Assembly: GCF_000743755.1 (NCBI RefSeq)
Contig: NW_014569512.1
Span: forward strand, 1 to 53,485
Length of the DNA stretch: 53,485 bases
Source of the DNA: Blastocystis sp. subtype 4
Lineage: Eukaryota
Direction of reading: 5' to 3'
Shown here: positions 20,118-36,448 of the stretch, in pieces
Numbering within the stretch: position 1 is the first letter of the stretch
Layout: each line of letters begins with the position of its first letter
Translations under genes and position numbers: made by a program
The notes under the pieces: model-generated
Seen by the model: only the letters and a program-made list of their open reading frames with translations
Told to the model about the DNA's origin: nothing
The model's database searches: none

Positions 20118-21328
20118 ATGTTTTCACTTGCAGTGGCTAAAACAACGTAGGATGCAGAAGTTATTGGTTACATTTTCAGGTTGCTTCGAAGTGCATCAGC
20201 GATTCGATGGGCTCCTTTTGTTCGTAATCTCTTTATTAGTGTGAAGGAGACTCCAAATCCCGACGTTCAGAAGTTTCTCCCTACTCCTCCTATCACTGTT
20301 CTTCCTGCAGAATTTGGTCATACCATGGTGCGGAACTCCAGTCGGATGTGACATTTAGGAGTTCAATAATGAAAAAGAAGCGCGACAATCTCCTTTAGCG
20401 AGCAAGCTGTTCGAAATTCCGGAAGTGAGTTCCGTTCTTTTCGGAGATCAGTATATTTGTGTAACACGCAAAGTGAGGGCATCCTTGAAGCTTCATTTCT
20501 AGGATGGTGTAGATTGGGAATATATCAATCCCGCAGTCTTTCATGTCGTTTTAGATATATCCTCCAAGGCAGATTCATTAGTTTCGTTCATGACACTTCT
20601 TTTCTACGAAGGAACCCCAACCTATTGTTCTCCGTCCTGAGGACATTCCAGAGGATCCAAACGATGTTAAGGAGACAGACAGTGAAGTTGTCAAATTGAT
20701 TAAAGAGCTTCTTGGTACTCGTATTCGTCCTCGTATAAAAGCGGATGGAGGTGACATCTTTTTCCAGGGTTTTGATGATGCTTCGGGTGTTGTGAAAGTG
20801 AAGGTGAGTTTATGGAAGGAATGTGATGGGTAGTTGACTGGAGCTTGTAAGGGATGTGCAAGCAGTAGTGTGACATTAAAACAGGGTGTAGAACAGATGA
20901 TGAAGCACTACATTCCAGAAGTCAAAAGTGTGGAGAGTGTAGAAGATCCCGATACTCCCGAAGTGAAAGCAGCCAAGGAGAAGGCAGAGAAGGAGCTTCG
21001 AAAGGATTTCGAAGACGAATTGGCGGCAGCGATCGCTGATGAAATGAAGAAGATGAAAAAACGTAGGTATGGTTGTTCTGATTCTCGATGATGATTTCTT
21101 TGGTGATTGATGGCTCCGGCATTCTACTGCGAGAGAACGACTAAGAATTGTTTTGTCTGCTGGAATGCGATAGAATTGCATTAATAGGCGTGATTATCCC
21201 AAAGTATGGGATATTCGAGATTTCGTAATGCGACATTGTATAAATCTGGGAGCAAGTATGATATCACAAAGGCGAATCTGAGAGATAATGAGTTTTGTGT
21301 ATTCTTCTTATCCATGTTAGGAAGTTAA
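20118..21328 (+). CDS. NFU1: NFU1 iron-sulfur cluster scaffold/carrier with probable MRO targeting peptide
   Basis: [75 protein letters not shown]. Contains an AT-AC intron (20557-20596) and a probable 258-nt last intron (21063-21320) giving ...KKRS-TAA. The unspliced alternative stops at 21091. Confidence 0.9.
20557..20596 (+). other. U12-type AT-AC intron (40 nt)
   Basis: ATATCCTC...TTCATGAC-AC; removing it restores VVLD|FFSTKEP in frame. Confidence 0.85.
21083..21285 (+). ncRNA. Composite box C/D + H/ACA scaRNA-like guide RNA (U85-type architecture), intronic
   Basis: Terminal stem TCTC/GAGA; box C ATGATGA 21088-21094; D' TTGA 21107-21110; two hairpins separated by box H ATAGAA 21170-21175; ACA 21233-21235; box D CTGA 21278-21281; antisense elements to U5 snRNA loop 1. 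Confidence 0.8.
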
Positions 21329-21498
21329 GTATTTTATAATTCAACATTTGTTAAACTCATTCTTGTTTCGTTGGAAGAAGCTATTCTTTAAAGTTTAACT
21401 TTACCTTTTCTAATCTGCTAATTAGTGTTCCTAAACCACGGGTATGAAGAATTGCCTGCTTACTCTTTCATTATTTCTTTGATCTTTGATCTATTGTG

Positions 21499-24400
21499 AT
21501 GCCCGAACTTTCTGAGTACTATAATAACAAGGAGGAGTATATTTTGTCCGAAGTACGGTTTCTAGTACTCATTAAGAATAGGATAAAGAAGCTTTTATCA
21601 AGAAGAGATTCACACAAAGTGAAGAATTATGTTACAAGGTGCATGTACTCCACCTATGTGATATGTAGATTCTGTATCTCCAAGTTTACAATCCGAACGC
21701 ATTTGATGAACAGAAAGATTGCTTTGAGAAACTTCGAGATCTCTCTGTGTATGGGAAAACTAAGGAATTGCGAGATATGTTGTACTTCCGCTATTTACTA
21801 CTGAAACAAGGAGAATGTCCAGAGTTGAATCCGGAGTTGAAGTCGTATATTGCAGATCACTATGATGTGGCTATGAACTTTGGAAAGGCTCCTTTGAGAC
21901 CATCTGAAGATGTTTCCACCTCTCCAAGCAAATGTAGTATTGATTATAATGCTTTTCAATCGTTTCTAAAGGATATGGACTTGGAGTACTGTACCGATGT
22001 GTATGTGGAACGACTTCTTAAGGTTAACGAAGACAAGAAGATTGCACATCAACTCTTGAAACGTATTTCGCGTCCTGGAATAGATGGCATTTTGAAGAAT
22101 ATCATGTTGTATCTATCTACACTGGAACATGAGAATCTCTCTAGTCAATCGTTGTGGTTAGGTCTGTTGACATTCGAAGATATGGAACAATTGCAAGTGG
22201 ATGTTAAGAAGACGTATGACTTCGATATGTTCACTATCAGTGATTTCCGAGAGCAATATATCAAGCGTTTTGGAGATGTTCATATTGCTAGTGATGCGGA
22301 TCCTTCTTCTATTCTTCTCTGTGAGAAGATTCGAAACCGTCGCATTGAATTTTTAAAGAAGAATAATTTAGGAGGCTTGCAAGATGAATACTCGGCTCTT
22401 CTTTCGCTTCAGAAACGACGTGGAGTGTATAATACGGATCTGTTTTTGGCTTATCTTCAATCATCTGTAAAGGATTCATCTCTAGTTCGAGAGGTACGTG
22501 GATACATGTCATATAATAATACTCTAACCAGTTTCCATCAAGACTTCCTTCATCATATCTTTCCTCAAGAGAAACCAGATCAATTCTTGCGCTATTTGAA
22601 TGTCCATGCAGTGTTGTCAATCTATGAAGAGGAGTGTCTTCTTAGTGGACAGGAAATCAAGATCTCTGAATTGAGTGCGGAGGATGTTCAACGATTGAAT
22701 GAGATGAAACGTTGTCGTGTGTTAGATGATAATCAACTGTATTATAATACAGGCGATCCTGTATCTGTTCGTGTTGCATTGAAGAATGTATCTTCTCTTC
22801 AAGTCCAGGTCTTTGAATTGAATACAATGAGTATTTATAAGAAGCAGGATTCCATTTCTTCTCATATTGATTTGGATGGTCTACAGCCATTGATGTCTAT
22901 GTCGTATTCCTATTCATTACCATCGATGGTTTCACATATTGAAACATTTACTTTCCCTTCTCTGGATCATCGTGGTGTGTATGTGCTAGATTTCATTGCT
23001 GGATCTATCAACAGTCGTTTCCTCATTCGAATGGGTTCATTGAAGGCTCTGGTACGTACATCGATCATGGGCTATGCTCTTACGATTGTGGATGAGTTCG
23101 GAAATCGTGTGGAGGAGAATGTAAAGGTCATGGAGGGAGTTCGAAGCTTCACATTGGATTCGAATAAGGAGATTATCATCCCATTCTTGCCCCCAACAGA
23201 CTCATCGCGCACTGTGACTCTTCTCTTGTGCCAGGAAGTCCAACCGAACTGGTATTTCGTGGATCGTCACACAATGAAGTTGGAGGAAGAGAGGCCTCGT
23301 CTGACTCTGTGTGGTGATGTGGACAATGAGGATATTGTCAAGGGAAACGAGAAGTGTCGTCTGGTACTTCGTCCTGTGGCAACTCTGAACTCCGAAATCT
23401 ATCCACTGTCGTTACTTCGAAATGTAACAATCACCATACGTTGTGAAGCTTCTCAGGATGTGCACACTGAAACAACTCTTCATCCCACTCTGAAGGATAA
23501 CCAGGACTTTGCTTATTCCTTCCGTGTTCTTGATCATGTAGTATCATTAGCTGCAACTATAACAGCAGATATTGCTCTGTCAAATGGTTCCTTGCGCCAT
23601 CTTACTGCTGATTGCAATCTTTATAATGATCCTGTGCCTTCCTCTGATGTTATTACTTCTGTGAAGAAGAATGTTACTCTCTTCCGTCGTCGAAATCCTC
23701 AAAACAATGAGCTTGAGTATGTGGCTGCATTGTATGGACCTGCAGGTGAGCCATGCTGTGGTGTTTCGGTCAAAGTGGAGTTGAAGAGTATTCTGACAAC
23801 ACGCTCATATAACGTTCAGCTGGAGACCAATGAAAATGGTCATATTTTGCTTGGAAAGTTGGAGGATGTGAATATGGTGACTGTAAATGATGTTTCATTC
23901 CCTCTCTTGCAAGATCGCTTTGATATTCCTTCGAATGTGGAGTGTTCAGATTCTGATCCTGTTCAAGTGATGATTCCTGCTGTAACCAAGGATCTCCAAT
24001 CATATTCTCTGATTTGTATGAGTCAGATAGATATGAATGATCACTATGGCTCAATGGCGATTAAAGACGGATATTTGATGATAAGCGGATTGCCTGCTGG
24101 TTCGTATACTCTATATATGACTGGAGAGAACTCTCAGCGATACTCAATGTCGATTGAAGTTCGTCGTACTGTTCGTTTAATGAAGGTTTATGACCTATAT
24201 GCGGTATATGACACATGGGCAAGATCGTTGATGCCACAGCCTCTTTCCTTGGCATGTAATCTTTCTGATTCTAAGCTGCATATTCAGCTTCAGGGAGGAA
24301 GTTGCAACCGTCGTGTTCATGTCCAGTGTAAGCTGCTCTACGATAGCATGACCTTGGGAAAGCATTTAGAAGAAGGAAGTTCGACAAGTCAATCGTATTT

Positions 24401-27400
24401 CACTTCTCTGGATCCTATTTCGTCGGTAATTGTAAACGATCGATCGCTTCCTGAGGAATATGCCTACATCCTTGATCGCAAGCGTCAAAAGCGGGATCTT
24501 CCTGGAAACATGCTGCCACATCCTGGTCCTTTGCTGCATCCTGTGGAGTTTGCAGACACTAAGAACACAAGCCAGAAGGCAGAGAAAGGAAATGATTTTG
24601 CTGAAGAGAAGGTGGGATCTGGTTATGGAGCCCGTAATGCCAAACTCTGTGGAAGTAGAAGATTTGATCCGAAACCTCAGGCCTACCAGCGTTCAGCTTG
24701 TGAAGTCATTAATCGTCCCTCAAGCTTGATGTTGAACGTGGCGTTGGATGAGAATGGAGAATGTGACGTCAATCTGGAGGAACTGGGTACATACGGAGCT
24801 GAAGTGACTGTGGTGGCTGTAGATGAGGCCAAAACTGTGGAACGTCATTTGTACCTGGAAGAAACATGTCAAGAGAGGAAGATTCAAGACCTGCTTAGTG
24901 AACATCGTCTAAAAGAGAGTTTGGACTGTTCAAAGCATTTTACTGAGAGAAAGATCATCTCTTTAGTGACAGAAGACTCACCTCTATCACTGGATGGTAA
25001 GAGTGATATGGAAACAATTGGATCTCTTTCAGATTTGTTCTTATTGCTAAAGACATTGTCACATAATACTGAACTGGATTCATTCTCGTTCTTGTTATCA
25101 TGGAACGAATTGAGTGAAGCAGAGAAGGAAATGAACTACAACCGCAATATCTGTTCGGAACTCAATGTCTTCTTATACTTCCGAGATCGTTCTTTCTTTG
25201 ATACCAAGATTCTCCCTTATTTGAAGTGTAAAATGGAGAAGTCGTTCCTAGATCTCTATCTAATAGGAGAGGATGTGTCATCATTCCTGCAACCTCCTAA
25301 GCTTCTTCTTCTCAATGCTTTTGAGAAGGCTTTGTTATGTAGTAGGATTCCTGCGGAGGCAGCGAAAGGATTGGCTGAGAGTATGGGAGTGTGTGGAGAT
25401 GGAGAGCGGATGAGTACCAAGCAGTTCATGAAGATCTTCAATACAGTGTTGAAAATGAAGTCTATGGAGAGTCTTCCTGTCGAGAATGAAGAAGCTGATT
25501 TTGAAACTCCTGAAGAAGAAGAATGTGTTGAAGAAGGAGTTGAAGAGGACTCATTATGTTGTGACTCATCAAATTTTGAGAACAGAATGTTGTGTGGAGG
25601 TCCTGTTGTATATGCATGTGCCACTGCACCCATGGCACCTTCAGCTCAAGGTATGTCTGCTCCACTTCCAGCTCCCTATATGCCAGCTTCACCTGCTTAT
25701 ATGTCTACTGGAAGTTGTAGAATGGATAGAGGTGGACCAGTTCTACCTGAGACATGCTTGTCTTCCAGATCCATGCCCTTTAGGAATCGAATGGCAAGAG
25801 ATATGGCTTCGTTAAAGGAGCATAAGCAGAAGAGAGAAAAGCATTATGAATTGATGGAGAATACAAAGGAATATGTGGAGGGTTTCTATTTTAAAGAAGT
25901 CACCATGTATGTCGATCCTTCACGTGTTCCAAACTCTCCATTCTGGGAGGAGTTTGCATGTTATATGAGTAAGAAGGAATCAACACCATTCTTATCCAAG
26001 GAGTTCATTTATTGTACTCATTCGTTGTCAGAAATCCTCTTTTGTATGGCTGTTCTTGGTTTAGATATTCACAATGAGGTGAAAATTGAAGGAATGAATG
26101 AGATTGTGTTGCATTCAACCTCACCTGTCTTTGTATTCCACAAGATGTTGGCAGAAGCTGATATCATTCCCCATTCACAATCTCTCATTGTTCTTCAAAA
26201 GTACATTGATAACAACAATAACTATGTCAAGATTCAGGGAGAGAAAATGGAGCGATATATGACAGCAAATGAATTCCTTCCTTTCCATCCTTACACTTGT
26301 AAGATTTTCATCACAAATCTGGATTCTCTCCCTCAGAAGGTCTCGGTATTGTATCAGATTCCTGAAGGAAGTTGTCCTCTGTCTGAGAATTGGTACATGC
26401 ATACAGAATCACTTCAAGTACCTCCATACTCCACATCAACATTCTCCTATTGTTTCTATTTCCCTTCTCTGGGTGAATACAAGCATTATCCTGCTCATGT
26501 GATTGATGAAGTCTCTTCAGATGTAATTGGTTTTGCTCAGTCTTCCTTTGATACATTAACGGTTGTTCCTATGTTGAAGACAGTGGATAAGTTGTCATGG
26601 CGTGACATTGCTTATTATGCGAGTGAAGAGGATTTGTTTGTCTATCTGCGAACGCATTCACTAAAGGACATTGATTGGTCTTTGATGTATTGGCGTCTGA
26701 AGGATAAGTCATTCTATCTCTCCTTCATCAGTTTCCTACGACAGCTTGGCTTCTACACGGAGACATTGTGGAGCTATGGAGTTATACATGGAGATGCCAA
26801 AATAACAGGCGAGTATTTGAGTCGAAAAGTAAAGGATAAGTTGGGGCTGGTGTTTTCGTGTCCTATGCTGACAGTCGAGCCAGCTGTTGAGAATCTGTTC
26901 CAAATTCGTGAATACAAGCCATTCATAAACAGTCGTGCTTTCCGTTTGGGTAAGAGCATCGAGATAACGAATGACAAACTGAAGGAACAGTATACTAAGT
27001 TCTTAACATATCTAACACAGAAGAAGCCAACAACGGATGACTATCTAGTAATGGTCTACTATTTCATTCTTCTTGATCGTGTTCATGATGCTTTGGTATT
27101 GTTTAAAACACGTGTATGTGAGGAGGTGAATGGACAACTTGTATGTCATTCAGACTGTCATAGTGAGATTCAGTTTGATTACATGCATGCCTACTTCGAA
27201 TGTTTTAACAGTGATTTGTCAGCTGCTCGAGCCATTTGTGAGAAGTATCATTCGTATCCTGTTCTTTATTGGCGTAACATGTTTGCTAATGTGGAGGAGC
27301 TGATTCATGATGCCGAAGGATCTCTGGATTCAATGATGTTGGAGGATGAGGAGGAGATGGATCGAACAAATCTTCCTGAGAATGTGATACGATCAAAACG

Positions 27401-28010
27401 TGTGAAAGTTTCAGAAGACAGTTCTGTGAGTGTCTCGGTGACAGACAATACCCTTTCGATTCGCTATACGAATGTAGAGAAGGTACAAGTGAATCTCTAT
27501 GAGATTAGTGCAGAGTTAAAATTCAGTAATTCTCCCTTCCTTCATGATAGCTCTTCTGATTCTCTCTTCATTCGTCCGAATTACACTGAGGATGTCCAAC
27601 TCCCTGCTGTGCCCAAAGACAGACTGTTCGGTACTTTCTCGTATTCTCTTCCGGAAACGTGGGCTCACAAGAATTTGCTCATAGAAGTGTGTACAGACGA
27701 ATTACGTGAGACCTGCTTCTCTTTCAACTCTACTCTGGTCGTTATTCTCTCCCAGAAGTCAGGACAGTTGCGTGTATTTGATCAGACAACGAAACGTCCT
27801 CTTGCAAACGCTTATGTGAAGGTATATGTGAAGATCAATGAGAAGGCGGAGTTCTTGAAGGATGGATTTACCGATATTCGCGGATACTTCGACTATTTCG
27901 CAGTCAGTAATGACTTGGGAACGAAGGCAAAGGCAGTAGCTATCTTTGTGGATAAGGAGGGATATGGTTCTTGTATTCGCGAGACTCTTCCTCCAAATGC
28001 TAGTTTTTGA
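21499..28010 (+). CDS. ~2,150 aa conserved protein resembling Dictyostelium AbpF and large bacterial hypothetical proteins (alpha-2-macroglobulin-like beta domains)
   Basis: Two short 5' introns, then an uninterrupted 6.3-kb frame. Motifs IDLDGL, RGVYVLDF, LPGNMLPHP and C-terminal RPLANAYVKVY...FLKDGFTDIRGYFDY. Family assignment is from recall. Confidence 0.7.
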
Positions 28011-28172
28011 GTAATTGACTTTTGTGATTGTTTGTTCTATAATGTTTCCTTTCAATGAACTGGTACCATAATAATCTCTCTTTTTGGAATTCCAAAATTG
28101 GCTATAATGGTTTGAAATGGTCATTCTTCGAGGATGGAGATTGAGACTGAATCACCATCAGTAAAAAGAAAT

Positions 28173-31135
28173 ATGAGTAACGTTGATGAATGGCTTCGTA
28201 AGGTTTGTGATTGCTGTTGAAATTGATAAATCAGTCAAAAGTGATTAAGGACTCTACTCCTACCTCTCTTCGAGTTCAAATTCAAGAATCTTCCTATGAT
28301 GCTTCTGTCATGCTCCACTACAATTCGGATATCGTGATCGGAGGATATACTGGGATGTTTCTAAGTGTAACAGAGCGCCAATCCTCAAAATGGAGGATCG
28401 CGGTTAATGGTTCAGGTTCGGGTGTTGAGGATGTATGAATAGAGTGGTAAAATCACAGATAGGATACATTTGTGATAGTAAAAGCGAATAATCCTAGTGA
28501 TACTAGTATTATCCACAATGGAGATGTTATATGTATTCGTCATAAATGTTGATCTATTTTATTAATGATAATATCTAGTATTCATGCGTTACTTGAGTTA
28601 TGATCCTGAAACAAGTGAAGTCTCTCTAGTTGCCCGTGTGAATGGCGAGAGTGAAAACTGGATTATTTTCAATGATTTTGTTCCAGATACTTCAGGAGAG
28701 GTGGAATCGGGAAGTTATGTAGTACTGAAACGTCCAACAGGTCAATATCTAACATATGTGCAGGATCATGGTCAAGAAGGATTATTAAGTGTATCTGGAA
28801 GTAATACGGATACACGTTTATATGATCAGCAAATTTGGCGTATTTTAAAAGCGCATTCGTCCTATTTGGAAGTACTTAAATGATTCTTTCATTTAAAGTA
28901 GATTACGCCCAATTCGTTGTACAGTGAACAAATCATCAATCCAAAGCAGAAAGAGAATGTAGACCTTCGAAATCTCCCATATCAAGTCCAAGCCTCTCTG
29001 ATAACAGAAGAAGTCCGTATGGCCTTATTCTTGTCTCCTGGCCGTTTATTATCGATTACAAAGAGTGACATGCCTCGAATTCAAAACAAACAACTGTTGA
29101 TCGATGTTCCGATTGATTATGGGAAAGCAGAGGACTATTTGAAACTTGGGTTTTCTGTTAACGATCAGTATCACTTTGATGTTAATCTGAAGAATCTTCT
29201 AGAAGTTCTTCTACCAAGTGTAAATCAAGTTATATCCTTTGAATGAATGAATGATATTGCGTTCTTAACATCAATTACGAATCAAAACCTTCATTAATCA
29301 GAACAATCGATTCGAGTTCGGTCGTGTCATAACCGCGGTTATTCATCTAATCACGGAGAACATCACTACGTTTGACCGCATTATTAGTGAAGTACTCTGT
29401 TCTTCTATTATCCTAATCTAGTTGTCTCCATCCATCAGTCTCTCCAATCTACATCTCGTGCTTCTCTATTGGAATAACCAACTAGAAGTGATGGATAATC
29501 TGTGTCGATTATGTTCTATTATTCGAGGAGGACAATTACTCAATCAGCTGATCTTATTAGAGGAGAATGAAAGTAATGAACAAAAGAAACAGTTCTATCG
29601 AGATGTATTGGATACAGCTTCCAAGGAATACTTTGATATGATGCAGGATTATATTTATAAGGGTGAAGTGAATGATTACTATAATGTAGATTGTTTTTGT
29701 CATTCCTGAAATATAGGAGTTTATGGTTGTACATCGTCAAGAATCGTTGGGACGATTAGGAGCAGTCAACGAGTTCGAGTTTAACCCGATTCACGAATTG
29801 TCTGCCATCAGCAGTTCGAATGCAAAGATTCTTCTTTGTGGTCATTACATCAATATTGTGAATCATACGAATACGCCAGTAGAGAACCCTTGTTTTAAGC
29901 AATGGGCTTTTGGATATGATGTGACAGTGTATGGAGAAAACGTGAGAATATGAATATGAAGTGAGGAATAGATTGATGAAGCCTTCGATTATGCAAACCA
30001 GTTATTGTTAGGAGTATTGCGCAACGACGAACATGATATTACAAGTGTGATATGTAATTTGAATCGTTTGTTTTTCCTTCTTCGAGGAGAGCTATGTATT
30101 TGTCTCTACGACACTCTAAATGATTATTTGAATCAAAATGCGTCCAGTATTGATGTTGTGAAGATGCAGTCTCTGTTTCAAGTTTGTATGATTTCAGCAT
30201 TTAATGATGGTAAGCCATCAACTCAGCGATTCATTGACTCGGTATCAGTAAATAAACGACTTGCTCGAAGTGATCGTGAAAAAGGCTGGGATGTGATGGA
30301 AGTGAGTGTGATGTTGGAGTATCCATTGAATATTGTGATTTCAAATGCTATTCTACAGAAGTACCGAAACCTGTTTCATTTGCTGTTGATGCTCAATGTA
30401 TGTTTGAAGAGGGATAATCACTGGTAGAGAACTTGTCGGTCATTGGATATGTGTTGGTGTGTATTGAATCAGTACAAGCAACGTTCCGTTCAATCGAAAC
30501 TATATATGGCTCGATCACTTCATAACAATCTAAAGTATTTTGTGAATACACTGTTGTATTATCTATCAACTGATGTAGGCAATACTCACATATTTAATAA
30601 CAGGTAATTGGTCCTGCAACTACACAATTCGAAAAGGAACTACCTGTATATTCAACAGTTGATGACTTTGTGAAAGGTTTTGAAGACTTTGTGGGAGATG
30701 TGTATGAAAAGTGTTTCTTGGTGAGTGAAGGGTTATTGCGTGGGTTAAGAAGCATTTGTAGTGTATGTCTCGATTTCACAGAATTTGTTGATAAGCAGTT
30801 ACATTGGGAGTAATGGAGGAGATATGAGAGTAATGAATAGTAATCAGTTGGGTCGACGGAAGATGGATCTGAGTATAGAAGAATCGACTCAGGAAGAAGG
30901 AACAATTCGTCCTTTGGTAGTGATGAACCAAGAGATTGGAACCCGTTTACGAAGTCAGATAGCAAAGGTAGAAGAAAGGACAGGAGCTGAACTCTGGAGT
31001 GCTCGTATAGAAGAACTGAAATCGAGTTTTGTTCGTTATCGAAGTGAGTTTTTAAGTATTCTGGAAGCGCAACCAGGGTTTTTGCAGTCAACGTTTTTGA
31101 GTTTGCATCGAAAATTGCGTCAACAGTATCGATAG
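28173..31135 (+). CDS. Gamma-tubulin complex component (GCP2/Spc97-like) with N-terminal beta-trefoil-like extension
   Basis: RGGQLLNQL, ASKEYFDMMQDYIYKGEVNDYY-EF, KILLCGHYIN, NLNRLFFLLRGEL, GWDVMEVSVMLEYPLNIVISNAILQKYRNLFHLLL are GRIP-domain motifs. Confidence 0.85.
29232..29271 (+). other. U12-type intron with AT-AT termini (40 nt)
   Basis: ATATCCTT...TTCTTAAC-AT; contains stops; removal gives VNQV|QLRIKTF in frame. Confidence 0.7.
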
Positions 31136-35154: not shown

Positions 35155-35653
35155 ATGGTAAGTTTTGATTCCTTAGTGCGGTGTTGAGAGAACAACGGAG
35201 AATCGTACTTATTGTGTGTAGTCAGGAAAAGGAGGAAAAGGAGGAAAGGGAGGAAAGGCCCCTTCAAGCAAGAAGCAAGTGATGACCCGTTCGACCAAGG
35301 CTGGTCTTCAGTTCCCTGTCGGTCGTATTCACAGATTCCTGAAGAGCCGTGTGTCTGCTCGTCAACGTGTGGGAGCTACTGCTGCTGTATACATTGCTGC
35401 CATTCTAGAGTATCTGAGTGCTGAGGTACTGGAGTTGGCTGGAAACGCTTCTAAGGATCTGAAGGTGAAACGTATTACTCCCCGTCATCTTCAACTCGCC
35501 ATTCGTGGAGACGAGGAATTGGATACTCTTGTAAAGGCTACGATTGCTGGAGGAGGTGTTGTTCCTTACATTCAGCCTACTCTCATTGGAAAGAACGGTG
35601 AAGAGGATGAGGAGAAGGAGCTGGAAATTGAGGAGCAAGAGGATGTTGAATAA
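35155..35653 (+). CDS. H2AZ: Histone variant H2A.Z with acidic C-terminal tail
   Basis: ATG, 64-nt intron, then SGKGGKGGK...[66 protein letters not shown]. Confidence 0.95.
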
Positions 35654-36375: not shown

Positions 36376-36448
36376 GCCCACATAGCTCAGTCGGTAGAGC
36401 GTTAGGCTTTTAACTTAACGGTCTGGGGTTCGAGCCCCCATGTGGGCG
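36376..36448 (+). tRNA. tRNA-Lys(UUU)
   Basis: Acceptor stem GCCCACA/TGTGGGC, D arm TAGCTCAGTCGGTAGAGC, anticodon loop CTTTTAA, T loop GGTTCGAGCC, followed by T runs. Confidence 0.97.

Follow-up and report, generated by a model that had tools for sequence, protein, structure and literature searches.

We found that a stretch of DNA at 21083-21285 on the forward strand of a Blastocystis sp. subtype 4 contig (NW_014569512.1, all 53,485 nt of which are called the window here) is probably a composite guide RNA for stem-loop I of the U5 snRNA. Its likely source is the last intron of an NFU1-like gene, a weak intron that is mostly retained. We assign this reading a probability of about 0.62. The element itself is real as a sequence feature. 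In the proposed mechanism an H/ACA domain would be nested in the box C/D domain of one RNA of about 205 nt, the D guide would direct methylation of U5 G37, the pocket of hairpin 2 would direct pseudouridylation of U5 U34, and occasional splicing of the NFU1-like last intron would release the guide RNA.

Architecture and fold of the element

A composite C/D and H/ACA RNA had been proposed at this location in the original prediction, and all 17 of its motifs that were searched for, with their positions for boxes, stems, donor and acceptor, were located at or within the places it gave. The features of the element are listed below with the evidence for each.

21083..21086 (+), 5' arm of the terminal stem, pairing with 21282-21285 (pair probability 0.49-0.56)
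21088..21094 (+), box C, a perfect RUGAUGA that doubles as a stop codon if unspliced (motif search)
21095..21106 (+), D' spacer of 12 nt, complementary to U5 42-51 and to the D spacer
21107..21110 (+), box D', TTGA (motif search, fold)
21113..21117 (+), connector stem GCTCC, pairing with GGAGC at 21249-21253 and enclosing the H/ACA domain (pair probability 0.99-1.0)
21119..21168 (+), H/ACA hairpin 1, with TAAG in the loop and a largely self-paired pocket (fold z -3.71)
21170..21175 (+), box H, ATAGAA (motif search)
21178..21231 (+), H/ACA hairpin 2, with pocket strands 21186-21190 and 21218-21223 and a loop that starts AAAG (fold z -3.65)
21233..21235 (+), box ACA, 15 nt past the upper stem of hairpin 2 (motif search)
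21258..21264 (+), box C', ATGATAT, two mismatches to consensus (pair probabilities 0.66-0.96)
21268..21276 (+), D guide, D+5 being C21273 (9 Watson-Crick pairs with U5 34-42)
21278..21281 (+), box D, CTGA, its last base 39 nt 5' of the acceptor end (motif search, fold)

The minimum-energy fold, computed without constraints, contained the terminal stem, the connector stem and the two hairpins in nested order, with pair probabilities of 0.94-1.0 for hairpin 2 and the connector stem and 0.74-0.99 for the lower stem of hairpin 1. None of 200 shuffles matched either hairpin, the H/ACA module folded with a z of -3.95, and the whole 205-nt RNA had a z of -2.65, with 3 of 200 shuffles as good. A 3-nt bulge is made up of G21087 and the two opening bases of box C, and box D is followed at once by the terminal stem, a layout which we take to be that of a K-turn. 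Box C' had originally been placed at 21255 as AGTATGA; by the K-turn pairing rule it is better placed as ATGATAT at 21258-21264, because there the UGA core is kept, A6 lies opposite the U of TTGA in D', and the stem continues with GTGAT/ATCAC. With this register the spacers measure 12 nt (C to D') and 13 nt (C' to D). The spacing originally given for the hairpin-1 pocket was also corrected.

Boxes, spacing and the unconstrained fold thus agree with the nested architecture that had been proposed. The features that define composite C/D-H/ACA RNAs were found in turn: terminal boxes C and D with their stem, internal D' and C', and a complete nested H/ACA domain, together with snRNA antisense elements under the D+5 and 14-16 nt rules on U5 proxies (G37 and U34). 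The CAB-like loops, TAAG and AAAG, agree only in AG, and so weakly, with the CAB consensus ugAG (PMC4041459).

Predicted targets on U5

The U5 loop motif was absent from the window, and target tests were made on 11 Rfam-confirmed U5 proxies from other eukaryotes, whose numbering is used here. A motif scan of genome contigs gave 35 stretches, 16 of which were scanned with Rfam and yielded U5, U2, U4, U6, U1 and U3 genes. The search pattern contained the target, so that agreement across these 21 nt was built in by the selection; independent of it are the Rfam U5 calls and the positions to which the D+5 and pocket rules point. Several of these eukaryotic snRNA genes occurred in clusters (U1, U2, U4, U5, U6, SRP and tRNA) on contigs of prokaryotic assemblies (L056, L058, L059, L078, L086, L087), and assembly G001, a source of such clusters, also holds eukaryotic rDNA. 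The clusters probably entered these assemblies as contaminating DNA of protists whose snRNA genes are clustered. A tandem array of U5 genes spaced at about 436 nt was also seen on an 82-kb contig (L057, L062-L065, L068-L071, L074-L076, L080, L082-L084).

In 11 of 11 proxies the D guide formed 9 Watson-Crick pairs from D+2 and placed D+5 on G37 (duplex -12.6 kcal/mol), which bears out the target first proposed for it. This nucleotide is methylated in human U5, with no guide entered for it in the table of a 2021 review (PMC7960923); its equivalents are methylated as Gm38 in Drosophila (PMC13228274) and as G40/Gm41 in Arabidopsis, where the guide is snoR102 (PMC8053127, PMC2685112). The geometry proposed for the hairpin-2 pocket, framing U34 at 15 nt from ACA, held on the proxies as well: the pocket enclosed U34-U35 with 6+5 Watson-Crick pairs in 7 of the 11 and 4+5 in the other four.

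U34 is absent from the human U5 pseudouridines as listed in the review (43, 46 and 53; PMC7960923), the 5' strand of the pocket repeats the target of the D guide and simultaneous pairing is impossible, pseudouridylation of the U5 loop can be blocked by nearby modifications (PMC5733568), and hairpin 1 is without a target on the proxies. These points would favor an RNA that guides G37 methylation only, its H/ACA domain serving stability, localisation or docking to U5 with no Psi34 made. We consider this rather unlikely, given that the catalytic geometry is exact (two unpaired bases, 15 nt to ACA, 6+5 Watson-Crick pairs) and that the 3' strand of the pocket engages U5 bases left free by the D guide.

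A third converging element, the D' spacer, had been read as a guide for U5 C45. Opposite U5 42-51 it forms 8 Watson-Crick and 2 G-U pairs. Its D'+5, however, meets position 46, which is U in all 11 proxies (the search pattern permitted C or U there) and sits in a G-U pair, so a canonical guide role for C45 is not supported. Because it is complementary to the D spacer as well (-5.2 kcal/mol), the D' spacer does not add an independent third line of evidence; its probable role is accessory pairing. Of the three converging elements in the original argument, two therefore count as independent, namely the D guide and the pocket of hairpin 2. For hairpin 1, 35 registers tried against snRNA proxies and 7 against an rDNA proxy gave no convincing target. 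The U4 or U2 target suggested earlier did not hold up, in that, once pockets were required to have 3 or more pairs per side, no register rose above background on proxies lacking an animal-type U4 (animal-type U4, U6atac and U12 proxies were each found in 0 of 4 genomes).

Pairing with other RNAs was compared on a eukaryotic rDNA proxy, where the D guide scored 8.5 (9 on U5) in a match that did not start at D+1 or D+2, the pocket 7.0 (11 on U5) and the D' spacer 8.5. The guides might instead target native rRNA, a minor snRNA or an mRNA and match U5 incidentally, since the comparison used proxies in place of the native rRNA and snRNAs and the duplex of the D guide spans just 9 bp. The D guide taken singly is weak: 839 of 20000 random 13-mers reached its score of 9 on some snRNA proxy with G-U pairs counted. 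A different target is nevertheless very improbable in view of the weaker rDNA matches, of a joint null of 3 in 3041 shuffled windows (below), and of the agreement of two elements, to within 3 nt, on a U5 site that carries a methyl group in three lineages.

Tests against chance and searches for relatives

Random pockets reached the score of 11 in 72 of 20000 cases. In the real window three strict D-guide matches occurred, and the element was the only one of them with an upstream box C and the only joint match. Among 1224 shuffled windows, 11 satisfied a loose joint rule, and a C/D match on U5 37, 41 or 45 arose twice in the same 1224. In a larger set of 3041 shuffled windows, a box C with a D-guide match appeared in 845, a nested convergent pocket in 3 and the same pocket within a folded hairpin in 0; the null criteria were written after the element had been seen, which makes the shuffle figures optimistic. 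The elements are weak singly but not jointly, under these post hoc criteria.

No Rfam family reached its gathering score within the element, the best weak match being the 3' hairpin of SCARNA16 (13.5 bits, threshold 65), and the U85 model gave no match at E<=10. The covariance search against SCARNA and U85 families that had been suggested as a check thus returned no family at threshold. The sole Rfam match at threshold anywhere in the window was a tRNA gene at 36376-36448 (+) with anticodon UUU. A pattern search of RNA motifs in metagenomes gave 53 loci, two of which (L007 and L031) were 100% identical to the window and 51 of which had no BLAST similarity to it; identical copies were found among these matches, and no diverged orthologue. 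The most suggestive of the remainder, L052, sits among bacterial-type ORFs and was taken as a chance match. Two patterns gave 0 matches on viral contigs.

We also considered other classes of RNA. A telomerase RNA was rejected, the CCCTAA template being absent from the 258 nt; a different, USE-driven candidate for this RNA has been proposed (PMC8287931). A U5 pseudogene was ruled out, as the matches to U5 are split and lie at box-defined positions.

A chance structure, or an element of the mRNA 3' UTR with accidental boxes, would account for the absence of an Rfam match, of a diverged orthologue among the metagenome matches and of small-RNA support. It would also have to produce two hairpins with z near -3.7, six ordered boxes at canonical spacing and a combination seen in 0 of 3041 shuffles, and we regard it as extremely improbable.

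Host gene and the last intron

The window has a G+C content of 40.3%. At least 27 introns with RNA support were placed in it (25 GT and 2 U12-type), all of 29-64 nt, and three poly(A) sites observed in RNA run X1 lie 5 nt upstream of TGTTTGTT or a one-base variant. These poly(A) and intron features agree with the polyadenylation motif and spacing described for Blastocystis (PMC5608401), from which minor introns are already known (PMC5608401). The U12-type donor ATATCCT opens two introns in the window: one of 40 nt in the host gene (20557-20596, +; AT-AC, donor ATATCCTC) and one of 43 nt at 29232-29274 (+; donor ATATCCTT, non-canonical AA end), both removed in X1. Another spliced intron, at 35158-35221 (+), has 64 nt, double the usual length, and by eye no evident C or D boxes. 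An open frame of 2113 codons (21669-28010, +) is intronless within this intron-rich genome; X1 contig depth over it is high, with poly(A) at 28024.

The host gene and the features at its 3' end are as follows.

20118..21062 (+), NFU1-like host gene, six exons (open frame; X1 splicing)
20118-20146, 20180-20327, 20359-20472, 20503-20556, 20597-20803, 20834-21062 (+), host exons
21063..21069 (+), candidate 5' splice site GTAGGTA, strong (PWM 7.5)
21307..21320 (+), candidate 3' splice site, a TTAG end after a pyrimidine-rich run, weak (PWM 3.0)
21321..21359 (+), putative last micro-exon and poly(A) site at 21359 (frame; X1 poly(A) loose end)
21364..21372 (+), TGTTTCGTT, a variant form of the polyadenylation motif described from Blastocystis, 5 nt 3' of the poly(A) site

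Host introns 2-5 are removed in X1, and a loose end before 20180 corresponds to the end of exon 1. The frame encodes a protein of 260-odd residues with a CxxC motif in its C-terminal domain, which we take to be NFU1. The donor at 21063 scores above all 25 listed RNA-supported GT donors (0.8-7.0) and, among all GT sites of the window, ranks in the top 0.16%, while the acceptor beats only 2 of 25 listed RNA-supported acceptors and falls in the top 20% of AG sites. Splicing between the two would add a micro-exon that completes an R codon, adds S and ends at the stop TAA (21326-21328), leaving a 3' UTR of 31 nt. In the unspliced message the TGATGA of box C (21089-21094) forms an in-frame double stop, followed by a 3' UTR of 268 nt; a full-length protein results from either form. 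The double stop could be chance, as one frame in three would give it.

The RNA evidence that covers the element comes from one run, X1, in the form of assembled contigs, from which rare variants are lost. Its contig is unspliced and gapless from 20894 to 21359, where poly(A) begins, and empty adjacent intergenic bins argue against DNA as the source of the signal. A joint between 21062 and 21321 is not listed among the X1 contig joints, and depth in the bin 20900-21563 (79.1) equals that expected from the unspliced contig alone (79.05). The junction 21063-21320, which was to be sought in RNA-seq, was therefore absent from the contigs of the sole covering run. Since contigs lose rare forms, X1 documents retention and not the absence of splicing. 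Run X2 contributed one low-depth unspliced piece that ends at 21094 and also keeps an upstream intron; X2-X4 were otherwise uninformative on the element. Run X5 comes from a diverged relative, about 83% identical over the last coding exon. Its alignment reaches 21068, past which 96 further bases are unaligned, and some 38,000 depth-times-bases in the bin 20900-21563 lie beyond the pieces listed. This end is compatible with a spliced form and a diverged unspliced form alike, and we counted it as no evidence.

Of the 258-nt last intron first proposed (GTAGGT...GTTAG), the strong donor motif at 21063 and the weak acceptor motif ending at 21320 were recovered, and routine splicing was not, the X1 contig being unspliced. 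The guide RNA may be genuine and 21063-21320 no working intron, the element lying in the 3' UTR and being excised by a nuclease or acting within the transcript. The sole covering contig is unspliced and polyadenylated though introns 2-5 are removed in X1, the bin depth holds no junction piece though the assemblies keep 60-nt records, and a 3' UTR location has a precedent in snoR102-2, which serves the same U5 G (PMC2875012, PMC2685112), as has the keeping of a snoRNA-bearing intron by host messages in the snoRNA-retaining transcripts (PMC11028025). Against this location, the best-scoring donor stands 20 nt 5' of the terminal stem and a TAG acceptor ends 39 nt past box D, the 31-nt UTR of the spliced form is closer than 268 nt to the 14-nt 3' UTR of another gene, and rare variants drop out of contigs. 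We hold the 3' UTR reading to be unlikely, if still of some weight. An intron of 258 nt would need a reason to exist, because the other RNA-supported introns measure 29-64 nt. A mostly retained last intron is likely because the donor outscores the 25 listed RNA-supported donors, yet X1 is unspliced. We therefore prefer a last intron that is mostly retained and sometimes spliced to a pure 3' UTR location as the likely arrangement.

Comparison with known guide RNAs

The closest likeness is to U85 (SCARNA10 in human and Xenopus; scaRNA:MeU5-C46 in Drosophila), likewise a composite that directs methylation and pseudouridylation in the 5' loop of U5 (PMC5733568, PMC4041459). U85 makes Cm45 and Psi46, whereas the Blastocystis element is predicted to make Gm37 and Psi34, and at about 205 nt it is shorter than the fly U85-type RNA of 316 nt (511 minus 195; PMC13228274). 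Membership in the U85 family was not found, the targets being G37 and U34 in place of Cm45 and Psi46 and an Rfam match being absent. On sequence grounds the element would represent a U85-like architecture outside animals with different predicted targets; the architecture itself is already known.

U87/U88 (SCARNA5/6), U89 (SCARNA12) and the elongated SCARNA21 are hybrid scaRNAs too, SCARNA21 being described as a C/D snoRNA with an H/ACA snoRNA inside it (PMC4914119, PMC2685112), and the number of human hybrids is given as five (PMC4914119). Their targets are U5 Um41, U4 Am65, U5 Psi46, U12 and U6atac, which differ from the G37 and U34 of the element, and no sequence match to them was found; the U87/U88/U89 families were thus excluded both on targets and by Rfam.

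In Arabidopsis, snoR102 and snoR102-2 carry a box D guide for the equivalent U5 G, one of the variants maps to an annotated 3' UTR, and the RNAs are described in nuclear foci. snoR102 is C/D only and comes from a longer capped transcript, whereas the element is composite. The 2009 Arabidopsis survey reported no C/D and H/ACA composite (PMC2685112), and the sections consulted of an Ostreococcus survey mention none (PMC7671301). In snoRNA-retaining transcripts (snoRTs) and in the SNORD86/NOP56 case, the host message likewise keeps a snoRNA-bearing intron (PMC11028025). Those transcripts were described in human cells; in Blastocystis it is the last intron that is kept, both forms give the full protein, and box C acts as the stop.

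A full-text literature search gave, in its listings and the starts of abstracts, no composite scaRNA from a stramenopile and, by title or abstract start, no paper on Blastocystis snoRNAs. This is in line with the original prediction, which knew of no such RNA from this group, and does not establish absence from print.

Significance

The composite C/D-H/ACA guides in the literature consulted come from animals. If the element is what it appears to be, a stramenopile composite would bear on whether the design, and with it the RNA-guided modification of the U5 loop, dates to early eukaryotes. The element names a predicted guide for U5 G37, a conserved methylation for which the 2021 review, as far as consulted, lists no human guide (PMC7960923), and it predicts a new U5 pseudouridine at U34.

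The broadest form of the proposal, which we offer tentatively and consider doubtful as a whole, is that stramenopiles have a compact U85-style scaRNA, its nested design older than animals or arisen twice, that makes Gm37 and an undescribed Psi34 and is dosed by a facultative last intron that exists only to carry it, with box C providing the stop when the intron is kept. In a genome of approximately 30-nt introns, a mostly retained last intron together with a box C stop suggests that the output of a guide RNA may be tuned without loss of the host protein.
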